A stretch of 64,000 bases of DNA, from contig JBDRKE010000023.1 in assembly GCA_043814315.1 (NCBI GenBank), forward strand, positions 15,576-79,575. The letters are read 5' to 3'. Below are positions 1,704-56,765 of the stretch, piece by piece. The notes under the pieces were generated by a model. That model worked only from the letters and a program-made list of their open reading frames with translations. It searched no databases and had not been told where the DNA came from. How positions within the stretch are numbered: the first letter of the stretch is position 1; every line of letters starts with the position of its first letter. Origin of the DNA: Candidatus Omnitrophota bacterium (GTDB taxonomy: Bacteria; Omnitrophota; Gorgyraeia; Gygaellales; Profunditerraquicolaceae). The position numbers were made by a program, and so were the translations under genes.

Positions 1704-1718
1704 AACTTATGCCCTCAT

Positions 1719-4035: not shown

Positions 4036-4073
4036 TTGCTCTTACTCCGTTCGTAAGTTTACAGTTACCTCAC

Positions 4074-5423: not shown

Positions 5424-5449
5424 TATTTTAACTCCTTGAAATAAAGTTT

Positions 5450-5551
5450 AAAATTCCGAATTCCAAACGCCAAATTCCAAACACAGAGCTTCGGACATTG
5501 GGATTTGTTTGGGATTTGTTTGGGATTTGTGATTTGTAATTTGGGATTTTT
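5450..5551. repeat. Word-built imperfect hairpin (ccaaa / tttggg words), rplV|rpsC gap
   Basis: A/C-rich arm aaattccgaattccaaacgccaaattccaaacac opposite the tandem ttgggatttgt x3 arm. Confidence 0.85.
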
Positions 5552-5564
5552 CGTGTCATTATAT

Positions 5565-5897: not shown

Positions 5898-6157
5898 TTA
5901 ATGAGCGCTAAACTTACGAAAGCACGAAGTGCAACGTAAGTTTATGCGCGAATTAACCCCCCACCACTTTTTAAATACACTTGAGATATCTTACGGTATT
6001 GCTCCCCCTCCTACCCCATTCTGTAAATCACACGCTTGTTACAAAAAGTGGTGGGGGGTAAGTTCAGACATAAATTTATGTTCGCTTGCCGCACAAGCGG
6101 CACACCGGCTGTTCCGATACAGCCGGGTGCTCGCTCCATAAATTTAGTCCTCACTTA
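5898..6157 (-). repeat. Junction element family 1, full copy (modules C-B-A), rpsS|rplV
   Basis: Shares TAAGTGAGGAC..., the ACCCCCCACCACTTTTT/AAAAAGTGGTGGGGGGT stem, and GCGCAT-AACTTACG..CGTAAGTT-AGCGCTCATTAA with the other copies. Confidence 0.9.
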
Positions 6158-6447: not shown

Positions 6448-6467
6448 ATCTCCTCACTTTCACTCGT

Positions 6468-6596
6468 CAAAATCCAAATGTCAAAGCACAAAGCTTAAAA
6501 TGCGCACAAAACACAAAATCCAAAACAATCAGGCTTTTATTAGGATTTTGAATTTTGAATTTATTTTGTGCTTTGAATTTTGTCATTTGAATTTAT
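6468..6596. repeat. Word-built imperfect hairpin (caaaat / attttg words), rplB|rpsS gap
   Basis: caaaatccaaatgtcaaagcacaaa... opposite ...tttgtgctttgaattttgtcatttgaattt. Confidence 0.85.
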
Positions 6597-6598
6597 TC

Positions 6599-7430: not shown

Positions 7431-7637
7431 TTTAATGAGCGCTTAACTTACGAACACAATAGTGTTCGTAAGTAAATGCGCGAATTAACCCCCCACCACT
7501 TTTGCTATAACCTATGCTATATTGAAAGTGGTGGGGGGTAAGTTCGGGCATAAATTTATGTTCGCTTGCCGCACAAGCGGCACACCGGCTGTTCCGATAC
7601 AGCCGGGTGCGCGCTCCATAAATTTAGCCCTCACTTA
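7431..7637 (-). repeat. Junction element family 1, copy with short module-B loop, rplW|rplB
   Basis: Same modules; the module-B loop is only about 20 nt; overlaps the rplW 3' end. Confidence 0.9.
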
Positions 7638-9251: not shown

Positions 9252-9311
9252 GATTATTTTCCAGTTGTCCTGTTCGCCGGCTGACCTGTTTTGAACCGGC
9301 TCACAGGCTAA

Positions 9312-9369
9312 TCCTTCGACGGACTCAGGACACTTCGAAGAAGTACACTGAACGAAGCCGAAGTGCCGG
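9312..9369. repeat. Palindromic repeat family 3 (cttcg words), diverged copy, rpsJ|rplC gap
   Basis: tccttcgacggactcaggacacttcgaagaagtacactgaacgaagccgaagtgccgg; about 85 percent match to the reverse complement of 14656-14713 by eye. Confidence 0.75.
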
Positions 9370-9387
9370 AAAACCGGCTAACTTATT

Positions 9388-9687: not shown

Positions 9688-9742
9688 TCAATGAGCGCTT
9701 AACTTACGGAACACTAGTGACGTAAGTTAATGCGCGAATTGA
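9688..9742 (-). repeat. Junction element family 1, module A only, upstream of rpsJ
   Basis: aatgagcgcttaacttacg-loop-cgtaagttaatgcgcgaatt directly abutting the rpsJ ATG. Confidence 0.85.
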
Positions 9743-9773
9743 CTTCACACGAAAAGGAACTTTTCGTGTGAAG
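9743..9773. other. Perfect 14-bp hairpin after tuf
   Basis: cttcacacgaaaag-gaa-cttttcgtgtgaag; no U-tract follows in the mRNA sense. Confidence 0.8.
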
Positions 9774-9784
9774 CACTCTTGTTA

Positions 9785-10990
<1,206 letters not shown>

Positions 10991-11085
10991 ACTGATCCTC
11001 CTTCAATTTGCCCGTGTTTTACGGGCCAGCAAATTGATCCTTGACACGAAACATCCCATTACAACTCTCGCTTTCGTGTCAAGGA
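10991..11085 (-). repeat. Leader repeat family 2, upstream of tuf
   Basis: mRNA sense: 14-bp hairpin TCCTTGACACGAAA..TTTCGTGTCAAGGA, then TCAATTTGC-hairpin-GCAAATTGA, then AGGAGGA and ATG. Confidence 0.75.
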
Positions 11086-11173
11086 TAACTTCGGACATAT
11101 AAGTTATGTCGCTATCATCTTTTATAACTTGGTAAATATTTCGATATGGCCCCATAACTTATGTCCCCGCTTA
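11086..11173 (-). repeat. Family 1-related short form after fusA
   Basis: TAAGCGGGGAC-ATAAGTTATG-45-nt loop-CATAACTTAT-ATGTCCGAAGTTA; the fusA stop is its first TAA. Confidence 0.7.
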
Positions 11174-13270: not shown

Positions 13271-13539
13271 TTTTAATGAGCGCTTAACTTACGAATCCCG
13301 AAACTTCGGGATGAGTAAGTTAATGCGCGAATTAACCCCCCACCACTTTTTAAATACACTTGAGATTAAATCTTACGGTATATCTACCCCTCCCACCCCA
13401 TCTAACAAATCACGCGTTTGTTACAAAAAGTGGTGGGGGGTAAGTTCGGACATAAACTTATGTTCGCTTGCCGCAGGAGCGGCACACCGGCTGATCCGAT
13501 AAAGCCGGGTGCGCGCTCCATAAGTTTAGTCCTCACTTA
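13271..13539 (-). repeat. Junction element family 1, full copy, rpsG|fusA
   Basis: All three modules; the rpsG stop TAA is the first triplet of TAAGTGAGGAC. Confidence 0.9.
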
Positions 13540-14007
13540 CCACCTAAAGTGCGCAAAGGCCTTATTGGACTCTGCCATCTTATGCGTATCGTCTCTTTTT
13601 TTGATGACGGAACCTTCCCCCTTATGCGCGGCAATGATCTCATCCGCCAATTTTTCCTTCATGGAGCGGCCCTTCTTGTTTTTGGCAAAATCCCTGATCC
13701 AGCGCAAGGCAATAGAAGTTCCCCGCTCCTGACGCACCTCAATAGGAACCTGATAGGTTGCTCCCCCCACGCGCCGGGGCTTCACTTCCAATCGTGGCCT
13801 GGCATTATCCAGGGCCTTATGGAAAATCTTCAGCACATCGGGCTCATTAAGCTGTTTCTTGACTAAATCTAATGCCCCGTAAACCATCCTTTCGGCGATG
13901 GACTTCTTGCCTTCCAACATTACCATATTGATAAATTTGGCGACTATTTTACTGTTGAATATCGGATCAGGTAATAGTACTTTTTCTTGCGCTTTTCTTC
14001 TTCTCAT
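13537..14007 (-). CDS. rpsG: 30S ribosomal protein S7
   Basis: uS7-like (LPDPIFNSKIVAKFIN ... AFAHFRW); the stop TAA is the first 3 nt of the next element copy. Confidence 0.95.
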   Translation of the reverse strand: MRRRKAQEKVLLPDPIFNSKIVAKFINMVMLEGKKSIAERMVYGALDLVKKQLNEPDVLKIFHKALDNARPRLEVKPRRVGGATYQVPIEVRQERGTSIALRWIRDFAKNKKGRSMKEKLADEIIAAHKGEGSVIKKRDDTHKMAESNKAFAHFRW

Positions 14008-14267
14008 TTTTAATGAGCGCTTAACTTACGCACACAATAGTGTGCGTAAGTTAATGCGCGAATTAACCCCCCACCACTTTTTAAATACACTTGAGATATC
14101 TTACGGTATTGCTCCCCCTCCCACCCCATTCTGTAAATCACACGCTTGTTACAAAAAGTGGTGGGGGGTAAGTTCGGACATAAACTTATGTTCGCTTGCC
14201 GCAGGATCGGCACACCGGCTGATCCGATAAAGCCGGGTGCGCGCTCCATAAGTTTAGTCCTCACTTA
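14008..14267 (-). repeat. Junction element family 1, full copy, rpsL|rpsG
   Basis: All three modules; near-identical to the 5898 copy in the module-B loop. Confidence 0.9.
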
Positions 14268-14636: not shown

Positions 14637-14655
14637 ATTTTTGTTTGCTGATTTG

Positions 14656-14713
14656 CCAGCACTTCGCTTTCGCTCAGTGTCCTTCGGCGAAGTGTCCTGA
14701 GCCCGCCGAAGGA
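14656..14713. repeat. Palindromic repeat family 3, diverged copy, rpoC|rpsL gap
   Basis: Reverse-oriented relative to 9312-9369. Confidence 0.75.
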
Positions 14714-14758
14714 TTTTCCGGTTTGCCGGTTTAACCGGCTCATCGGCGAACTGGCTAA

Positions 14759-22303: not shown

Positions 22304-22373
22304 AATATTTAGTTTCCCAGTTTTCCGGTTGGCCTATTTGCCAATTAAACTGGCTAACCGGCGAACTGGCTAA

Positions 22374-22760
22374 CTATTTAAGTTCAACAGTAGCACCCGC
22401 CGCTTCCAGCTTCTTCTTCAACTCTTCTGCTTCTTCTTTCGGAACGCCTTCTTTAACGGGTTTGGGCGCAGCATCAACCAGGTCTTTGGCTTCTTTTAAG
22501 CCAAGGCTGGTCATAGATCTCACCTCTTTAATCACCGAGATTTTATTAGGTCCTACGCTGGCTAAAACCACGCTAAAAGTGGTTTTTTCTTCTGCGGGGC
22601 TAGCTGCGCCAGCCTGGCCAGCTCCGGCAGCGGCAACCGCCATCATTGGCATATTCGCCTTGACGTCGAATTTCTCCTCCAGCGCTTTCACAAGGCCCGA
22701 AAGCTCTAAAACCGTCATGCTCTCAATAGATTTGATGAGTTCCTCTAATTTTTCTGCCAT
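22374..22760 (-). CDS. rplL: 50S ribosomal protein L7/L12
   Basis: Ala-rich hinge and C-terminal KEAKDLV...[13 protein letters not shown]. Confidence 0.95.
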
Positions 22761-25551: not shown

Positions 25552-25633
25552 AGCTTAATAGTTTTATTGGGTTAAGATGCGTATTAATTCAGCACTTATT
25601 TGATAATTATTCTGTCAAACAAATAAGCGCTGA

Positions 25634-25691
25634 ATAAGTTCGGGCTTATAAGTTACGTCGCCTCCGGCTCCGTAACTTATGCCCTCACTTA
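25634..25691 (-). repeat. Family 1 short form (module-C hairpin only) directly after tRNA-Thr
   Basis: mRNA sense TAAGTGAGGGC-ATAAGTTACG-loop-CGTAACTTAT-AAGCCCGAACTTAT. Confidence 0.8.
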
Positions 25692-27786: not shown

Positions 27787-28851
27787 TCATGAGTTATCCT
27801 GAAGTATCTTGATGTACGCCTTCTTTTTGAGCCCATCAAGCCAATTCGAAAACTGCTCCTGCATTTTTAAATCGAAGAGATAGGCCTGGATTCTCACCTG
27901 GGCCTCTGAAAGGGTAAGTTGTCGCGGAGGTGTTATCTTGAGTAGTTTGAAAATGTAAAATTTGTTGTTGACTTTTAAGGGCTGAGAGTATTCGCCCGGA
28001 TTTAAGCTGCAGACCTTCTCTTCTATATCCTGGCGAAGCCCTCCATCGCGCTTAGCCACAATCTTATCGACTGTAAGAGGGAATCTTTTCTGTAAATCCT
28101 CCAATTTCTGTCCGGATCTAAACAGATTCTCGAACTCTCTGGCTGAGTCTTCCCTGTCTGTGTCCAGTATAACGATGTCGCATTCACGCTCTTCTCCAGT
28201 TACAAATTCCTTCATGTTTTTGTTATAAAAGGTCGTGACTTCATCGGGCCTGATCATGATTTTATCCTGGACGCTTTGCTCTACTATCATATACATAAGC
28301 ATTTGCTCCCGTATCTTCCTCTCCAGATCCGCCTGAACCAGGCCTTGTTTGGCTAAGTCATTCTGAAAATCTGCCTCCGAGGAGTAATGCCTTCTGATCT
28401 CGTTGATCTTTGCCTTGATCCTATTATCGTCTACCTTCACGTTTATGGCCTTGGCTTCCTGCAAAATAAGACGGTCCTCGATCAATTTCTCCAACAGATC
28501 CTTCCTTGTGGCCTCAATGCGTTTTTCGGCCTCGGCTTCATTATATTCCCTGGACAGCTGCAGCTGTGTAAAATTGAAAAAATCATTCAGGTCCCTCTGG
28601 GTAATTGCCTCGTTATTGACGACGGCAACGATTTTATCCTGCGCATAAACGGTAGAAATTCCAAATACAAAATTCCAAATAAGCACCAATACCCAAATGA
28701 CCAAAAAACGAAACTTAAAATAATGAAAAATTGGGATTTGGGTACCTCGACTCCGCTCGATACCAATGGTGAACGAAGTCGATCCATTGGAATTGGCATT
28801 TGTTTGGGATTTGGGATTTGGAAATTTGGATTTTAAGAAGTGATTAGTCAT
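27787..28851 (-). CDS. surA: SurA-like periplasmic chaperone / parvulin-type PPIase
   Basis: Signal-peptide-like VIWVLVLIWNFVFGISTVYA, SurA-N-like helical region and one parvulin-like domain; surA-pdxA-rsmA synteny. The first ~45 codons are repeat words, so the true start is probably downstream (e.g. TTG 28704). Confidence 0.6.
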   Translation of the reverse strand: MTNHFLKSKFPNPKSQTNANSNGSTSFTIGIERSRGTQIPIFHYFKFRFLVIWVLVLIWNFVFGISTVYAQDKIVAVVNNEAITQRDLNDFFNFTQLQLSREYNEAEAEKRIEATRKDLLEKLIEDRLILQEAKAINVKVDDNRIKAKINEIRRHYSSEADFQNDLAKQGLVQADLERKIREQMLMYMIVEQSVQDKIMIRPDEVTTFYNKNMKEFVTGEERECDIVILDTDREDSAREFENLFRSGQKLEDLQKRFPLTVDKIVAKRDGGLRQDIEEKVCSLNPGEYSQPLKVNNKFYIFKLLKITPPRQLTLSEAQVRIQAYLFDLKMQEQFSNWLDGLKKKAYIKILQDNS

Positions 28852-33906: not shown

Positions 33907-34030
33907 TGTAATCCTCCTTCAATGAGCCCCGCTGCATTCTTGCATTCGCAAGAATGCAAGAAGCGGGGCGAATTGATCCCGAGCCTGCGAAGAAAATTTC
34001 TTTGAAATTTTCGAGCGTTTAGGCGAGGGA
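33907..34030 (-). repeat. Leader repeat family 2, upstream of rpsP
   Basis: TCCCTCGCC..GAAAATTTC/GAAATTTTC hairpin..GGCTCGGGATCAATT-CGCCCCGC..GCGGGGC-TCATTGA-AGGAGGA. Confidence 0.75.
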
Positions 34031-35521
34031 CTACATGTTAATCGCCTCTATCAGCGCTTTAGCCTTATTCACCGATTCAAGATATTCCTTTGCGGGAACC
34101 GAATCCGCAACAATCCCCGCTCCCGCCTGCACGTAGGCGAAACCGCCTTTGACCACGATAGTCCTAATCGTGATACATGTATCCATATTATGCGAAAAAC
34201 TGAAATACCCCACGCAACCCGCATAAACCCCGCGCCTTAAGTTTTCTAACTCGTCAATAATCTCCATGGCCCGGATTTTCGGGCTGCCGGTCACGGTGCC
34301 GGCGGGAAACGCGGTACGCAACACATCATAGATATCGAATCGCTTTTTGTCAAGTGTTCCTCGAACTTCACTGACCAGATGCATGACATGGGAATATTTT
34401 TCTATGTTCATAAATTCGCTTATTTTCACAGTGCCGGCTAAACTGACCCTGCCCAAATCATTCCTGCCCAGGTCCACCAGCATGATATGCTCTGCTTTCT
34501 CTTTCTCGTCTTTAATCAATTCTTCTGCCAGTTTTCTATCTTCTTCTTCTGCGGCCCCTCTTTTACGCGTGCCTGCAATGGGCCTTGTCTGAATAAACCC
34601 CCCCTCGCAGCGCACCAGCATCTCGGGAGAAGACCCTATCAAAGAAACGTCTTTAAACTGAAGAAAATACATGTAAGGCGAAGGATTCAGGCTCCTTAAA
34701 TTTCTGTAAATTTCAAATTCTTCGCACGCTATCTTGGTTTTAAAACGCTGGGATAAAACAACCTGAATGACATCCCCTTTTCTAATGTAACCTTTGGCCT
34801 CCTTTACCATATTTTGAAATTCGGATTTAGTGACATTGGGGGAAATTTTCGATTTACCGGCTCTTTTCTTGCCCGCCTGGGCCTCAGGGCCCAAGGAAGC
34901 GCTAAATAGTTTTTGAATAGCCTTTATCTTTCTAACGGCGCGCTCATAAATTTTCTTTTTCATGGCGTACCTTGCGCGGAGCGACTTCGGCAATAGCGTA
35001 TTGGCGACGATCTTTATGGTGTGATTGACATGGTCAAAAATCAAAATGGTGTCCGTCAGAATAAAAATACAATCGTCTAACCCCAGGTCGTCCGGATTTT
35101 TGTCGGGGATATTTTCAAAAAAACGCGCCGTATCGTAACTCATAAAACCGACCAGCCCGCCATAAAAACGCGGCAATCCGGGGACAGGGGTGGCCTTAAA
35201 GCCTTTCATGATGCGCTTAATCTCCTCTAATGGCGTATCCTCAGTAATGAAACGCCTCACGGATTTACGGTGGGGAAAGTGTATCTCAATGGACCTTGCC
35301 TTGCTTCTGAATATCAAGGAAGGGTCGCTTCCCAAAAAAGAGTAACGCGCTAACTTTTGCTGCCCCTCCACCGATTCAAGCAAAAAGGCATAGTCGCTTT
35401 TCTTCATTCTTAAAAAGGCAGACACCGGCGTATCCAGATCCGCGTTGATCTCGCTATAGACGGGAATCACATTTGCTACTTTTGTAAGTTTTAAGAATTC
35501 CTTTAATGACGGTTTAACCAT
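34031..35521 (-). CDS. trpE: Anthranilate synthase component I
   Basis: Chorismate-binding enzyme with the N-terminal YAFLLESVEG..ARYSFLG TrpE signature; 496 aa. Other MST-family enzymes not excluded. Confidence 0.75.
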   Translation of the reverse strand: MVKPSLKEFLKLTKVANVIPVYSEINADLDTPVSAFLRMKKSDYAFLLESVEGQQKLARYSFLGSDPSLIFRSKARSIEIHFPHRKSVRRFITEDTPLEEIKRIMKGFKATPVPGLPRFYGGLVGFMSYDTARFFENIPDKNPDDLGLDDCIFILTDTILIFDHVNHTIKIVANTLLPKSLRARYAMKKKIYERAVRKIKAIQKLFSASLGPEAQAGKKRAGKSKISPNVTKSEFQNMVKEAKGYIRKGDVIQVVLSQRFKTKIACEEFEIYRNLRSLNPSPYMYFLQFKDVSLIGSSPEMLVRCEGGFIQTRPIAGTRKRGAAEEEDRKLAEELIKDEKEKAEHIMLVDLGRNDLGRVSLAGTVKISEFMNIEKYSHVMHLVSEVRGTLDKKRFDIYDVLRTAFPAGTVTGSPKIRAMEIIDELENLRRGVYAGCVGYFSFSHNMDTCITIRTIVVKGGFAYVQAGAGIVADSVPAKEYLESVNKAKALIEAINM

Positions 35522-36724: not shown

Positions 36725-36845
36725 AAATTCAAATGACAAAATCCAAAATTCAAAACAAATCCAAAATTCAAAACAAAAGATTTTCGATTTTTGATTTTGT
36801 GCTTTGTGCTTATTTTGTGCTTTGTTATTTGTTATTTGGATTTAT
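36725..36845. repeat. Word-built hairpin (caaaat / ttttg words), lipoprotein|hisF gap
   Basis: aaattcaaatgacaaaatccaaaattcaaaacaaatccaaaattcaaaac opposite gattttgtgctttgtgcttattttgtgctttgttatttg. Confidence 0.8.
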
Positions 36846-39501: not shown

Positions 39502-39525
39502 CAAGATCGGGTCTTGTAACTCATT
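39502..39525. repeat. 24-bp repeat caagatcgggtcttgtaactcatt in the hisD|hisB gap
   Basis: Identical to the reverse complement of 46924-46947. Confidence 0.85.
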
Positions 39526-39559
39526 GCCTATCAATCTGTTTCAAGTCCCGGTCTTGAAT

Positions 39560-46743: not shown

Positions 46744-46796
46744 AAGCCACCCCTCCTTTCTATCATAATCCCTCCTGCGCCTTTGGAGGACGCGGG

Positions 46797-46853
46797 ATAA
46801 GTTCGGACATAAATTTACGGAACGCCAGTGAGCGTAAATTTAGTCCTCACTTA
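46797..46853 (-). repeat. Family 1 short form in the recA/GGDEF divergent region
   Basis: TAAGTGAGGAC-TAAATTTACG-loop-CGTAAATTTA-TGTCCGAACTTAT. Confidence 0.8.
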
Positions 46854-46892: not shown

Positions 46893-47002
46893 CAAGATCG
46901 GGTCTTGACATCGCTTGGTAAACAATGAGTTACAAGACCCGATCTTGACATAACTCTAAAGACCCGGTCTTGACATAACTCTACGATCTTGACATAACTC
47001 TA
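46893..47002 (+). repeat. 15-bp inverted repeat followed by three tandem cttgacataactcta units
   Basis: caagatcgggtcttg (46893-46907) / caagacccgatcttg (46933-46947). TTGACA occurs at 46905, 46945, 46970 and 46989. Confidence 0.85.
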
Positions 47003-47024: not shown

Positions 47025-48203
47025 ATGGAAGATTTAACCAAAATCAAGCAAGAGCTGGAACGCACCAAGACAGAGCTGGGCATTCTTTATGAAATCTCCA
47101 ATGCCATGCGCACGACTCTGAGGCTGGAGGAGATCCTCTATATCATCCTGACAGGCGTCACAGCCCATATCGGACTGGGCTTTAACCGAGCTCTTCTGTT
47201 TCTGGTTAATGAGCGGGAAGGCCTCGTGGAAGGCAAAATGGGGATTGGCCCGGAAACCGGAGAAGAAGCCAACCGTATCTGGAAACAGATAGAACAGGAA
47301 AAGATGGACCTAGATGACCTGATCAGCGTCTCTAAATCTTCCAACTCCACCTTAGGCTCCAATTTTAACCGGCAGATCCAGCATTTAAAATTCTCGCTTC
47401 AGGACAAAAACGAAAACCTGCTGGCTATGGCTATTTTGGAAGGCATGCCCCTGCATCTGACCAAAGAAACAATGGCAAACTACCAGGATTACCCCATCAT
47501 TAAAATTCTTAAAAGTGAAGAGATAGTCTTAATCCCCTTAAAAGCAAAAGATAAAATTAACGGCATTATCGTGGCAGATAATTTTATTACCCAAGAACCC
47601 ATAACCAAAGACGATATCCGGATGCTTGCGATGCTGGCGAACCAGGCGGGCCTGGCCATTGAGAATTCCCAGCTTTACGAAAAAACCGTAATGCTGGCGC
47701 ACATGGATTCCCTTACGCAACTTTGGCACCATGGCCACTTCCATCACCTTCTTCAGACGGAATTAGAAAAATCCAAAGCCATGAACTCATCCTTAAGCCT
47801 CATTATGCTTGATATTGATGACTTTAAAATCTACAATGACTCACTCGGCCATCAGTCGGGAGACAGGATGTTAAAGGAATTAGCGAATTTGCTCAAGAAT
47901 CAATCCCGGAAGATGGATTATGTCTGCCGTTACGGCGGAGAGGAATTTACGATTATCCTACCGCAGACCGATAAAAAAGAGGCTTTTTTGATTGCGGAGC
48001 GGCTCAGGTTAGATATCGAAAGGCATCCCTTTATAGGCGAGGAGAATCTGCCTAAGAAAAAATTTACGGCGAGCCTGGGATTGGCCACCTATCCTGAAGA
48101 CGGAAACTCTCCCGCCGAACTTATTGAAGCAAGCGACAAGGCGCTTTACCAGGCAAAAAACAAAGACAAAAACAACACCTGCTGCTCAACCCCCTCGCTC
48201 TAA
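47025..48203 (+). CDS. GAF domain-containing diguanylate cyclase (GGDEF)
   Basis: C-terminal GGDEF domain with an RYGGEEF active site; N-terminal GAF-like region; only plus-strand gene in the window. Confidence 0.85.
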   Translation: MEDLTKIKQELERTKTELGILYEISNAMRTTLRLEEILYIILTGVTAHIGLGFNRALLFLVNEREGLVEGKMGIGPETGEEANRIWKQIEQEKMDLDDLISVSKSSNSTLGSNFNRQIQHLKFSLQDKNENLLAMAILEGMPLHLTKETMANYQDYPIIKILKSEEIVLIPLKAKDKINGIIVADNFITQEPITKDDIRMLAMLANQAGLAIENSQLYEKTVMLAHMDSLTQLWHHGHFHHLLQTELEKSKAMNSSLSLIMLDIDDFKIYNDSLGHQSGDRMLKELANLLKNQSRKMDYVCRYGGEEFTIILPQTDKKEAFLIAERLRLDIERHPFIGEENLPKKKFTASLGLATYPEDGNSPAELIEASDKALYQAKNKDKNNTCCSTPSL

Positions 48204-54290: not shown

Positions 54291-54401
54291 CTTAGCAAAT
54301 TCCAAGTACCAAGCTCCAAACTCCAAACTTTTATTTCGGTCATTGAGATTTCGGTTATTGGAGCTTGTTTGGGATTTGGAATTTGAAATCTGGGATTTAA
54401 C
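54291..54401. repeat. Word-built hairpin (ctccaaa / tttggag words), etfB|etfA gap
   Basis: caaattccaagtaccaagctccaaactccaaac opposite ttggagcttgtttgggatttggaatttgaaatctgggattt. Confidence 0.8.
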
Positions 54402-55184
54402 TTATACAATTTCATTTTTTAACAATGTTGCTAACTTTTCTACTACTTCCTGAGTCTCGCCGCGAAGCATCTGCCCGCCGGTTCTGGGCGCAGGAGAAAA
54501 TATTTTTAAGACCTGTGTCGGAGAACCGCAGAGGCCGATTTTCCGGGGGTCCAGATCAAGTTCTTTCTGCGACCATAAAATGATTTTGGCGGATTTTGAT
54601 CGCATCAAACCTTTGAGGGAAGGCAGCCTCGGTTCATTGATCTCCTTAACCACGGTAAGCAAAGCCGGCAATGGCGTCTCAATGATTTCAAAGCCCTCTT
54701 CCATCATCCTTTCCACGCGCATACTTTTATCCTTAACCTCTTCTATCTTTTTGACATACGTAACCTGAGGGATATCCAGATGCGTTGCAATACCCGGGCC
54801 CACTTGTGCCGTATCTCCGTCAGAGGCTTGCTTACCGCAGACAATCAGATCAAAAGAGCCTATTTTCTTGATAGCTCCGGATAGCGTATAACTCGTAGCC
54901 CACGTATCGCTTCCTGCAAAGGCACGGTCGCAGATAAGAATCCCCTCATCCGCTCCTATGGAAATGGCTTCCCTTAAAGCCGCCTCTGCCTGGGGAGGCC
55001 CCATGGTCAAAACCGTAACCTTTCCCCCCCATTTCTCCTTCAGGCGTACTCCTTCTTCAATGGCATACATATCAAAAGGATTGATGATAGACTTCACCCC
55101 TTCGCGGACCAGGGTGTTGGTCTCGGGATTGATTTTGACTTCGGTTGTTTCGGGAACCTGTTTAATGCAGACGATTATGTTCAT
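54402..55184 (-). CDS. etfB: Electron transfer flavoprotein beta subunit
   Basis: MNIIVCIKQVPE... and GKQASDGDTAQVGP block; no SD, preceded by the family-1 element. Confidence 0.9.
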   Translation of the reverse strand: MNIIVCIKQVPETTEVKINPETNTLVREGVKSIINPFDMYAIEEGVRLKEKWGGKVTVLTMGPPQAEAALREAISIGADEGILICDRAFAGSDTWATSYTLSGAIKKIGSFDLIVCGKQASDGDTAQVGPGIATHLDIPQVTYVKKIEEVKDKSMRVERMMEEGFEIIETPLPALLTVVKEINEPRLPSLKGLMRSKSAKIILWSQKELDLDPRKIGLCGSPTQVLKIFSPAPRTGGQMLRGETQEVVEKLATLLKNEIV

Positions 55185-55435
55185 TAATGAGCAGATAACT
55201 TATATCGTTCTTAAGAACGATATAAGTTATAGCGTCCCTTATTTTATTTGTTTATCAGCGTCTGCGAATTAACCCCCCACCACTTTTTGAACAGACGCTT
55301 GAGATAAAATTTACGGTATGGCTTTTCCCCACGCCATATTTAACAAAACCCTCACTAGCTACAAAAAGTGGTGGGGGGTAAGTTCGGCCAGACAACTTAA
55401 CTTCACTATCGTTCGTTAAGTTGTGGCCTTACTTA
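55185..55435 (-). repeat. Junction element family 1, divergent full copy, acyl-CoA DH|etfB
   Basis: Same module-B stem; modules A and C have different sequence but the same hairpin positions. Confidence 0.85.
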
Positions 55436-56584: not shown

Positions 56585-56755
56585 TGAACCTCCTCAATTT
56601 GCCCTCTATAGCAGATTCAACAAATTGATCCCGAGTATCCAGCTACTGCTTCTGTGATACGAGGGACTAATTTGCCCGCATCCAGAGGTTCGTAAAATTG
56701 ATCCCGAGCTTACGAATAAAATTTCACTGAAATTTTCAAGTGTTTAAGCGAGGGA
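56585..56755 (-). repeat. Leader repeat family 2, two tandem units upstream of the acyl-CoA dehydrogenase gene
   Basis: Two units, each with TCCCTCG..CTCGGGATCAATT..GGGCAAATT. The distal unit is close to the rpsP copy in the GAAAATTTCA..GAAATTTT segment. Confidence 0.75.
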
Positions 56756-56765
56756 TTTCAGTTCG

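Follow-up and report, generated by a model that had tools for sequence, protein, structure and literature searches.

The two inserts that flank rpsG in the 64,000-nucleotide (nt) stretch of Candidatus Omnitrophota DNA analysed here (the window) are best explained, at a probability of roughly 60%, as copies of a new non-autonomous, self-folding foldback repeat of the miniature inverted-repeat transposable element (MITE) or bacterial interspersed mosaic element (BIME) type, inserted into compact gene junctions. The locus lies on the minus strand in the gene order rpoB-rpoC-rpsL-rpsG-fusA-tuf-rpsJ...rplW-rplB-rpsS-rplV, and positions 13271-14267 correspond to rpsG with both of its flanking junctions, each filled by an insert of 257-266 nt. 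An earlier note had described here a MITE-like insertion placed between a Shine-Dalgarno (SD)-like box and the start codon, flanked by TAAA duplications, and had proposed that the ribosome-binding sites (RBS) of rpsG and fusA were thereby split. The strings it quoted were all found on the minus strand at rpsL-rpsG (14267-14008) and rpsG-fusA (13539-13271), and were verified on the same strand at rpsS-rplV, rplW-rplB, tuf-rpsJ, acyl-CoA dehydrogenase (acd)-etfB and rpsH-rplF. The layout is real and non-random: shuffles predict 0.24 occurrences of the TAAGTRAGGNC box where the window has 7, and 1.3 of GCTCATTRA where it has 12. Altogether, the window holds at least ten copies or remnants. The insertion reading rests on the structure of the repeat, its covariation, the inverted homology of its ends, its distribution, its presence/absence polymorphism and the compact ancestral state of the junctions.

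Each long copy consists of three successive hairpins, namely a 5' module (helices P1 and P2), a variable middle hairpin (P3) and a 3' module (P4). The rpsL-rpsG copy (14010-14267, minus strand) is made up of a 5' module at 14267-14169, P3 at 14168-14067 and P4 at 14066-14010, with the rpsL stop codon UAA forming the first three bases of P1 and the rpsG AUG (14007-14005) lying 2 nt past P4. The rpsG-fusA copy (13273-13539, minus strand) follows the same plan with a 5' module at 13539-13441, P3 at 13440-13336 and P4 at 13335-13273, the rpsG stop codon falling within P1 and the fusA AUG at 13270-13268. Two further long copies on the minus strand confirm the like layout that had been noted at rplW-rplB (7432-7637, with a short P3 and the rplW frame extending four codons into the repeat) and at rpsS-rplV (5898-6157, with the base of the helix flush with the rplV AUG). 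Pairwise identity among these four long copies is 87-92%.

Helix P1 is formed by UAAGU-GA-GGNC and GNCC-GA-ACUUA with a tandem G.A internal loop, and encloses P2, formed by (A/U)AACUUAUG and CAUAAGUU(U/A), in which five pairs covary. Across 19 copies from 11 contigs, 98.5% of the cells of the 5' module are paired and 7 of its 18 pairs have changed on both sides, a value attained by none of 500 shuffles, while slid partner columns pair at 19-42%. P1 itself is paired in 97.7% of cases, and pair 10-91, which involves the third base of the "GGAC" read as part of the SD-like box, is found as all four Watson-Crick pairs (AU 8, CG 5, GC 3, UA 2). Since P1 is paired with full covariation, the box GTGAGGAC is the 5' strand of this helix and not a ribosome-binding box, as the earlier note had itself cautioned in allowing that the box may belong to the element. 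The 5' TAAA is the start of helix P2, and copies from other genomes carry ATAAGTT, ATGACTT or CAGACTT at this position; being inside a covarying helix and absent from these copies, TAAA is not a target-site duplication. The first 14 nt of the 5' module also provide stop codons in all three frames (UAA, UGA, UAA). In the long form, the P2 loop carries a nested insert of about 46 nt forming a three-way junction (CGCACCCGGC..GCCGGTGTGCCG..CGGCAA), which was found at 14169-14267, in the three other long copies of the window and at rpsJ-rplC of a close relative (L142:14217-14325; L numbers denote loci from other genomes), and is absent elsewhere in the repeat family. The occurrence of the same nested form at this junction and at four others in the window indicates that the composite long form moves as a unit.

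P3 varies in sequence and length, and in the long copies of the window takes the form CCCCCCACCAC...GUGGUGGGGGG. P4, by comparison, is a conserved imperfect hairpin, N-AAU-UC-GCGC-A-UUAACUUAC-[UC-apical stem-UC]-GUAAGUUAA-GCGC-UC-AUU-N', with tandem U.C/C.U mismatches. Among 58 copies its basal pair N-N' is U-A in 34, A-U in 15 and C-G in 2, a T-to-A change in one arm is compensated by an A-to-T change in the other in 5 copies, and four pairs of the apical stem covary. A covariance model of P4 matches the 5' modules on the opposite strand with 31-47 bits, so that the two ends of the repeat are inverted homologues and the imperfect inverted repeats noted earlier at its borders are borne out. 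The long copies fold with z-scores of -7.9 to -9.4 relative to shuffles. When the segment bounded by the stop codon and the AUG is folded at minimum energy, the three helices follow one another directly, leaving 5 exterior unpaired nt of 263-272 in the rpsL-rpsG and rpsG-fusA copies and 8 of 200-268 in the other two long copies, compared with about 12-13 in shuffles. The compact folding proposed in the earlier note therefore holds for the distance between stop codon and AUG in these copies; its role in joining the box to the start codon does not, the box itself being paired and three hairpins standing between it and the AUG.

An exact search of a species-representative genome collection with a 19-mer of P4 (AATTCGCGCATWWACTTAC) gave 59 loci, 55 of which come from about 29 species-level genomes, mostly labelled Candidatus Omnitrophota, under which the S7 protein of the window is also recorded, with a few uncultured Planctomycetales. 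In all of these 55 loci the 3' arm and tail, which were not part of the query, are conserved as well, and the remaining four matches, from other phyla, are without the 3' arm. Rfam yielded only two tRNAs in the window and no match to the repeat, either at the gathering threshold or at permissive E-values, the best sub-threshold match in the region being RAGATH-17 with 25 bits against a gathering score of 102. Viral contigs gave neither a P4-arm match nor a transposase, and exact-sequence searches with the S7, S12 and S10 proteins of the window gave no match. Full-text searches of a paper library brought up no work on repeats or mobile elements of Omnitrophota, nor any on MITEs within operons for ribosomal proteins.

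For a comparison of junctions blind to the repeat, 80 metagenome loci were selected solely by an encoded S7 relative, and four more were taken from the closest S7 relatives; one locus (L143) was excluded for its frameshift-ridden assembly. The junctions that are filled in the window mostly measure -4 to +15 nt in 23 relatives, with S7 identities of 62-85%; over the wider range of 62-94% S7 identity, ATGA overlaps or spacers of 0-15 nt predominate. The rpsL-rpsG junction reads AAATGAGA, an overlap, and rpsG-fusA reads TAA-A-ATG or TAA-TATAAT-ATG; tuf-rpsJ, rplW-rplB and rpsS-rplV read TAA-A-ATG, TAA-TT-ATG and TAA-T-ATG respectively. These short junctions, together with the repeated nature of the inserted sequence, uphold the proposal of a MITE-like insertion between genes. 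The ancestral junction predicted along with it, TAA-GTGAGGAC-TAAAA-ATG, was found in none of the repeat-free relatives, which mostly have ATGA overlaps or 1-15 nt at these places; the earlier note had listed just such a result as refuting its proposal. The compact relatives do carry SD-like strings inside the terminal codons of the preceding gene (AGGTGG in rpsG, GAGGT in rplW), and their displacement from the AUG by the insertion is the only sense in which a site has been split. The operons of L061-L065, L141 and L142 are very compact in general, with mostly ATGA/TAATG overlaps or TAA followed by 1-5 nt. At rpsG-fusA of L069, and in L075, fusA apparently begins at a GTG straight after the rpsG TAA, and the L069 sequence TAAGTGAAGAC is identical to the 5' box at 10 of 11 positions, which may be left over from a copy since lost or may point to where the box came from.

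Occupancy differs even among the closest relatives. No P4 copy was found in 20 kb of L141 (94% S7 identity), and L142 (92%) carries copies at rpsL-rpsG, tuf-rpsJ and rpsJ-rplC and has empty sites at rpsG-fusA (1 nt), rplW-rplB (-1 nt) and rpsS-rplV (3 nt); L144 (90%) shows yet another set of occupied junctions. With the window, L141, L142, L144 and L060-L072 all differing at orthologous junctions, the repeat is gained or lost on short evolutionary time scales. At rplW-rplB the insertion can be followed into the protein, since L23 ends in ..GQKISEG* in the window and in ..GQKIEVA* and similar in nine relatives (..KIE(V/T/S)(A/T/I)*), the last three codons having been replaced. The in-frame UAA of the repeat terminates L23 and the repeat supplies its last three residues (window 7624-7637, minus strand; L144:16237-16251, where the end is ..SEA*). 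What distinguishes the filled site from the empty one is the replacement of 9 nt.

Turning to the start codons, the six genes that follow the 3' hairpin in the window have no purine-rich SD in their last 20 upstream nt, as had been noted; GGAG/GAGG-like boxes are present at about two thirds of the remaining ribosomal-protein genes of the cluster. P4 is usually located just ahead of a start codon. Among canonical P4 copies, 26 have an AUG at a distance of 1-6 nt from CUCAUU and lack an SD, the genes including rpsG, fusA, rpsJ, rplB, rplV, rpsL, rpsI, rplR, rplU, rplI, infA, secY and hisF. About 12 canonical copies are followed by an AAGGAGG SD with the AUG at 11-18 nt (including tuf, rpsP, rplS, rpoA, acpP and gap), two are situated ahead of tRNA genes, and about a dozen are without a nearby gene start. 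At genes with a native SD, such as tuf and rpsP, the repeat is upstream of the SD, and at coupled genes it is between stop and start. The G.A-type 5' modules directly follow a stop codon in nearly all cases, the exceptions including the copy upstream of recA in the window and the copies that follow tRNA genes in the window and in L041. Downstream genes are most likely initiated without an SD or by re-initiation.

Opening the 7 nt of P4 beside the AUG is predicted to cost 0.3 kcal/mol, compared with 2.4 for the inverted module and 4.6 for the 5' module. The orientation rule thus has a possible reason, in that P4 opens at lower cost beside the AUG than either of the other two. It is tentatively conceivable, at odds well short of even, that the three-hairpin fold, or P4 by itself, given a base that opens freely and an A/U tail, is a portable device that allows an SD-less AUG to be used 100-266 nt from the stop codon, by bridged re-initiation or shunting or by SD-less recruitment. 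Such a device, if real, would explain how more than 25 independent genes, some of them essential, come to have an SD-less AUG 0-5 nt from the base of P4, as well as the locked orientation of the repeat.

Taken together, these data suggest a course of events in which copies of the repeat were inserted into ribosomal-protein junctions that once overlapped (ATGA) or were a few nt long, the insert providing stop codons at its 5' end and ending 0-5 nt short of the native AUG. The repeat would be co-transcribed with the operon, its self-contained hairpins avoiding interference, and the three abutting hairpins would hold stop codon and AUG a few unpaired nt apart without obstructing the A/U-rich start region. 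The downstream gene would then be translated as in the repeat-free relatives, with no dedicated SD, by re-initiation and/or SD-independent initiation, and may be aided by the near-free opening of the last 7 nt of P4. The mechanism by which the repeat is mobilised is a presumed one.

Several observations weigh against a simple mobile-element reading. About 56 canonical P4 copies are in sense orientation to the downstream gene and about 4-8 in antisense, which is unusual for a purely selfish MITE, and copies are apparently enriched beside translation genes. The arms of P4 show no difference between genomes that are as far apart in fusA as about 69% DNA and 68-77% protein identity. On the sense strand 157 G.U pairs are formed and on the antisense strand 100, a weak difference given that the copies are related by descent; this excess suggests selection on the transcript or top strand, and the antisense strand folds 2.4 kcal/mol better owing to the G.A loops. 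In addition, no target-site duplication is established: most copies have TAA or TA on either side, but these bases overlap the stop codon and the basal helix and are inseparable from them even in comparison with the relatives of 90-94% S7 identity. No transposase or autonomous partner was seen in the window, where the start of each open reading frame (ORF) translation was read and no genome-wide search was made, and the mode of downstream translation is entirely inferred. The orientation bias, the conservation of the arms and the enrichment at translation genes also fit host-level selection on the RNA, for which processing, stabilisation and a portable start context are candidate roles.

The rival that best accommodates these points, although it is considered rather unlikely, is that of host-selected cis-acting RNA modules, in which a protein or nuclease specific to the lineage would recognise the hairpins, and these would serve between cistrons in processing, stability or the start of translation, their spread being secondary. 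The RNase III sites between the early genes of phage T7 offer a comparison, and the imperfect stems of 20-25 bp would be plausible RNase III substrates. Besides the conserved arms and the sense-strand G.U excess, this explanation draws on the rule of position and orientation, with the G.A-type module after stop codons and the U.C-type before start codons, and on the many copies that precede ribosomal-protein, translation-factor and tRNA genes. It is, however, at odds with the patchy occupancy of orthologous junctions even at 90-94% S7 identity and the lack of any copy in 20 kb of the closest relative, with the decay and truncation of copies, with the rewriting of the rplW C-terminus by one insertion, with copies in non-genic contexts and beside convergent gene ends, and with the lack of an Rfam family match. 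Insertion of a mobile repeat into compact junctions remains the preferred reading.

The split site as first proposed, that is, a MITE with a TAAA duplication that separated an ancestral GTGAGGAC SD from its AUG, with RNA folding rejoining the two, is now very improbable. The box does hold GAGG directly after the stop codon, folding does draw the two ends of the repeat together, and in the remnant at rpsH-rplF the same box stands 9 nt from the AUG as a possible SD. Against this stand the covarying partner of the box, the place of TAAA inside P2 and its absence from copies of other genomes, the empty site that no repeat-free relative has, and the three hairpins, not one, between box and AUG. Moreover, short forms that lack the box altogether precede the same SD-less genes: fusA in L006, L027 and L053, rplB in L024, rpsG and rpsJ in L142, and rpsJ in the window. 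The least probable account, a DNA-level repeat with a chromosomal role (REP-like sites for gyrase or nucleoid proteins, REP being repetitive extragenic palindromic, or paired DNA-uptake sequences) in which the RNA structure is incidental, suits a palindromic, intergenic, high-copy repeat conserved across species with modules in both orientations, but is contradicted by arms that are not perfect complements, by conserved mismatches and a bulge that depend on orientation and gene position, by the G.U excess on the transcribed strand and by placement locked to stop and start codons.

The other copies of the window, all on the minus strand, document the range of the family. At tuf-rpsJ a short copy (9688-9774) without 5' box and without SD is made of an unrelated hairpin (9774-9744) and a canonical P4 (9742-9688), the AUG lying 1-2 nt past the helix. 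The diverged copy between the acyl-CoA dehydrogenase gene and etfB (55184-55435) has GGCC/GGCC in P1 and AACUUAAC/GUUAAGUU in P2, both compensatory, and its P4 belongs to a second subfamily (AAUUCGCAG...CUGCUCAUU) that is also represented in L071. The diverged fusA-tuf copy (10991-11173) comprises a 5' module, P3 and a degenerate 3' hairpin (CAAUUUGC..GCAAAUUG) followed by the native GGAGG SD of tuf. A copy that begins with the base next to tRNA-Thr and extends to rpmG (25560-25691) has a 5' module (25691-25635) accompanied by other hairpins. In the window (25635-25691) as in L041 (6077-6134), this module starts where tRNA-Thr ends or only a few bases away; in both genomes the tRNA has no encoded CCA and the copy leads to rpmG. 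The position, which is not a stop codon, is conserved. A partial copy in the region upstream of recA (46770-46853) holds a 5' module and a small hairpin; it is not placed at a stop codon, and a GGAGG SD of the ordinary kind comes after it. A variant 3' hairpin (AAUUCGC-hairpin-GCUCAUUGA, 33913-33977) lies upstream of the SD and AUG of rpsP, a gene that in L033 has a canonical P4.

Two remnants complete the set. The rpsH-rplF junction (1704-1718, minus strand), which had been taken for an ordinary element-free junction, is a 15-nt sequence, ATGAGGGCATAAGTT, that represents a truncated solo 5' arm of the repeat; with its flanking TAA and ATG it matches the start of the L008 5' module at 20 of 21 positions. 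A GAGGG in this remnant is now 9 nt away from the rplF AUG and could function there as a genuine SD. At rpmC-rpsQ (4036-4073, minus strand) a decayed mini copy of 38 nt (GUGAGG..UAAACUUACGAAC) occupies a junction that measures -1 to 3 nt in relatives. All but one of the approximately 70 genes of the window are on the minus strand and, for this reason, the orientation of the repeat relative to genes is not separable in the window from its orientation relative to replication.

Other repeats were also observed nearby. Unrelated hairpin repeats of 7-8-nt units (GTTAGCCA.., GGGATTTG.., AATTCAAA..) fill junctions that are 0-5 nt long in relatives, at 14637-14758, 22337-22380, 9252-9387, 6448-6598, 5424-5564, 28783-28835, 36793-36845 and 54347-54399. 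They are present in L060, L064, L066, L069, L141 and L144 as well, with a strong SD after those by rpsS and rpsC. Direct and inverted CAAGAYCGGGTCTTG repeats (39502-39557 and 46893-47000) are found beside the sole plus-strand gene (47025-48203) and upstream of the recA region. A third type of module (AUCCCUCGC...GCUCGGGAU), at 33971-34035 and 56585-56765, precedes a degenerate 3' hairpin (CAAUUUG..CAAAUUGA), after which comes a normal SD; two of its units stand in tandem upstream of the acyl-CoA dehydrogenase gene.

The repeat family is previously undescribed, belongs to an uncultured phylum about which little is known, and has settled in the cell's most conserved operons; its main interest lies in the translational question that it raises rather than in the split-RBS model. 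The affected gene pairs have ATGA overlaps or gaps of 1-5 nt in relatives, the classic layout of translational coupling; here they are up to 266 nt apart, separated by very stable RNA and with no SD, and rpsG, fusA, rpsJ, rplB and rplV must still be made. These junctions constitute a natural test bed for the reach of re-initiation or SD-independent initiation through structure, and bear on how mobile DNA evolves translational neutrality. For annotation, it is of relevance that the repeats donate stop codons and can rewrite protein ends.

With regard to class membership, the repeat has many dispersed, small, non-coding copies of 60-270 nt (at least ten in the window, and 55 loci from about 29 genomes), terminal inverted repeats whose ends read TAARTGAGSNC..TWAACTTAYG with the inverse, and presence/absence polymorphism at orthologous sites, all of which are features of MITEs; strict membership of that class is without a proven duplication. 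Other known systems fit less well. The modules, 55-100 nt long with ends TAAGTGAG and CTCATTA, are not REP sequences, which measure 20-40 nt and carry a GTAG/CGTC tag (PMC3733652). Integron attC sites are matched solely by GTTAAGC, which conforms to GTTRRRY; the neighbouring genes belong to the syntenic ribosomal core and are not cassettes, and no intI was seen in the window, where the start of each ORF translation was read. Ends of the IS200/IS605 type do not apply, the end hairpins being inverted and not direct. Nut-like boxA/boxB signals, which lie beside a hairpin in rRNA leaders, require that boxA (GCUCUUUAA-like) be single-stranded. Despite its likeness to boxA, the tail GCUCAUUAA pairs with AAUUCGC, and the basal pair covaries; the loci examined included no rRNA locus. 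Promoter and terminator consensus sequences were no commoner in the region than in shuffles, and none lies inside the repeat on the coding strand. A hairpin-bridged split RBS, as in phage T4 genes 38 and 25, where a hairpin between a single-stranded SD and the AUG shortens their effective distance, is likewise not applicable: here the SD-like box is paired and apparently dispensable, box-less forms serving the same genes, and 100-266 nt in two or three hairpins intervene.

The repeat family is of the intergenic foldback-repeat kind, and resembles most closely, in behaviour, the co-transcribed MITEs Correia/NEMIS, ERIC and Chunjie. Chunjie, as presented in a work that cites it, is a MITE of about 235 bp found between operon genes (cited in PMC10969869). 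It has defined terminal inverted repeats and direct repeats. To our knowledge, flush stop-to-start placement in coupled junctions has not been reported for Chunjie. Correia/NEMIS of Neisseria and ERIC of enterobacteria are small, multi-copy, co-transcribed MITEs that form long RNA stems, the effects of ERIC being orientation-dependent and Correia RNA being a substrate of RNase III (PMC2229807, PMC2649163). Like these, the repeat is small, non-coding, present in many copies, bounded by inverted repeats and adjacent to genes. Unlike them, it has no sequence similarity to either and no TA duplication demonstrated, and each of its ends forms a hairpin of its own of 55-100 nt, with a third hairpin in the middle, instead of one stem from end to end.

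In architecture, the closest systems are BIME mosaics and REPINs, described as imperfect intergenic palindromes arranged in mosaics with alternating orientation, the mobile unit comprising two inverted units and a spacer and being long-lived in its lineage (PMC3337134, PMC3116915). The present modules differ from REP units in their length of 55-100 nt and in ends, TAARTGAG and CTCATTA, that lack the GTAG/CGTC tag (PMC3733652), and no RAYT gene was seen, complete genomes not having been searched. Each module also folds on itself rather than pairing with its partner as in a REPIN. What further sets the repeat apart from Correia and ERIC is that stop and start codons fix both its orientation and its position, inside essential ribosomal-protein operons, with arms conserved across many species.

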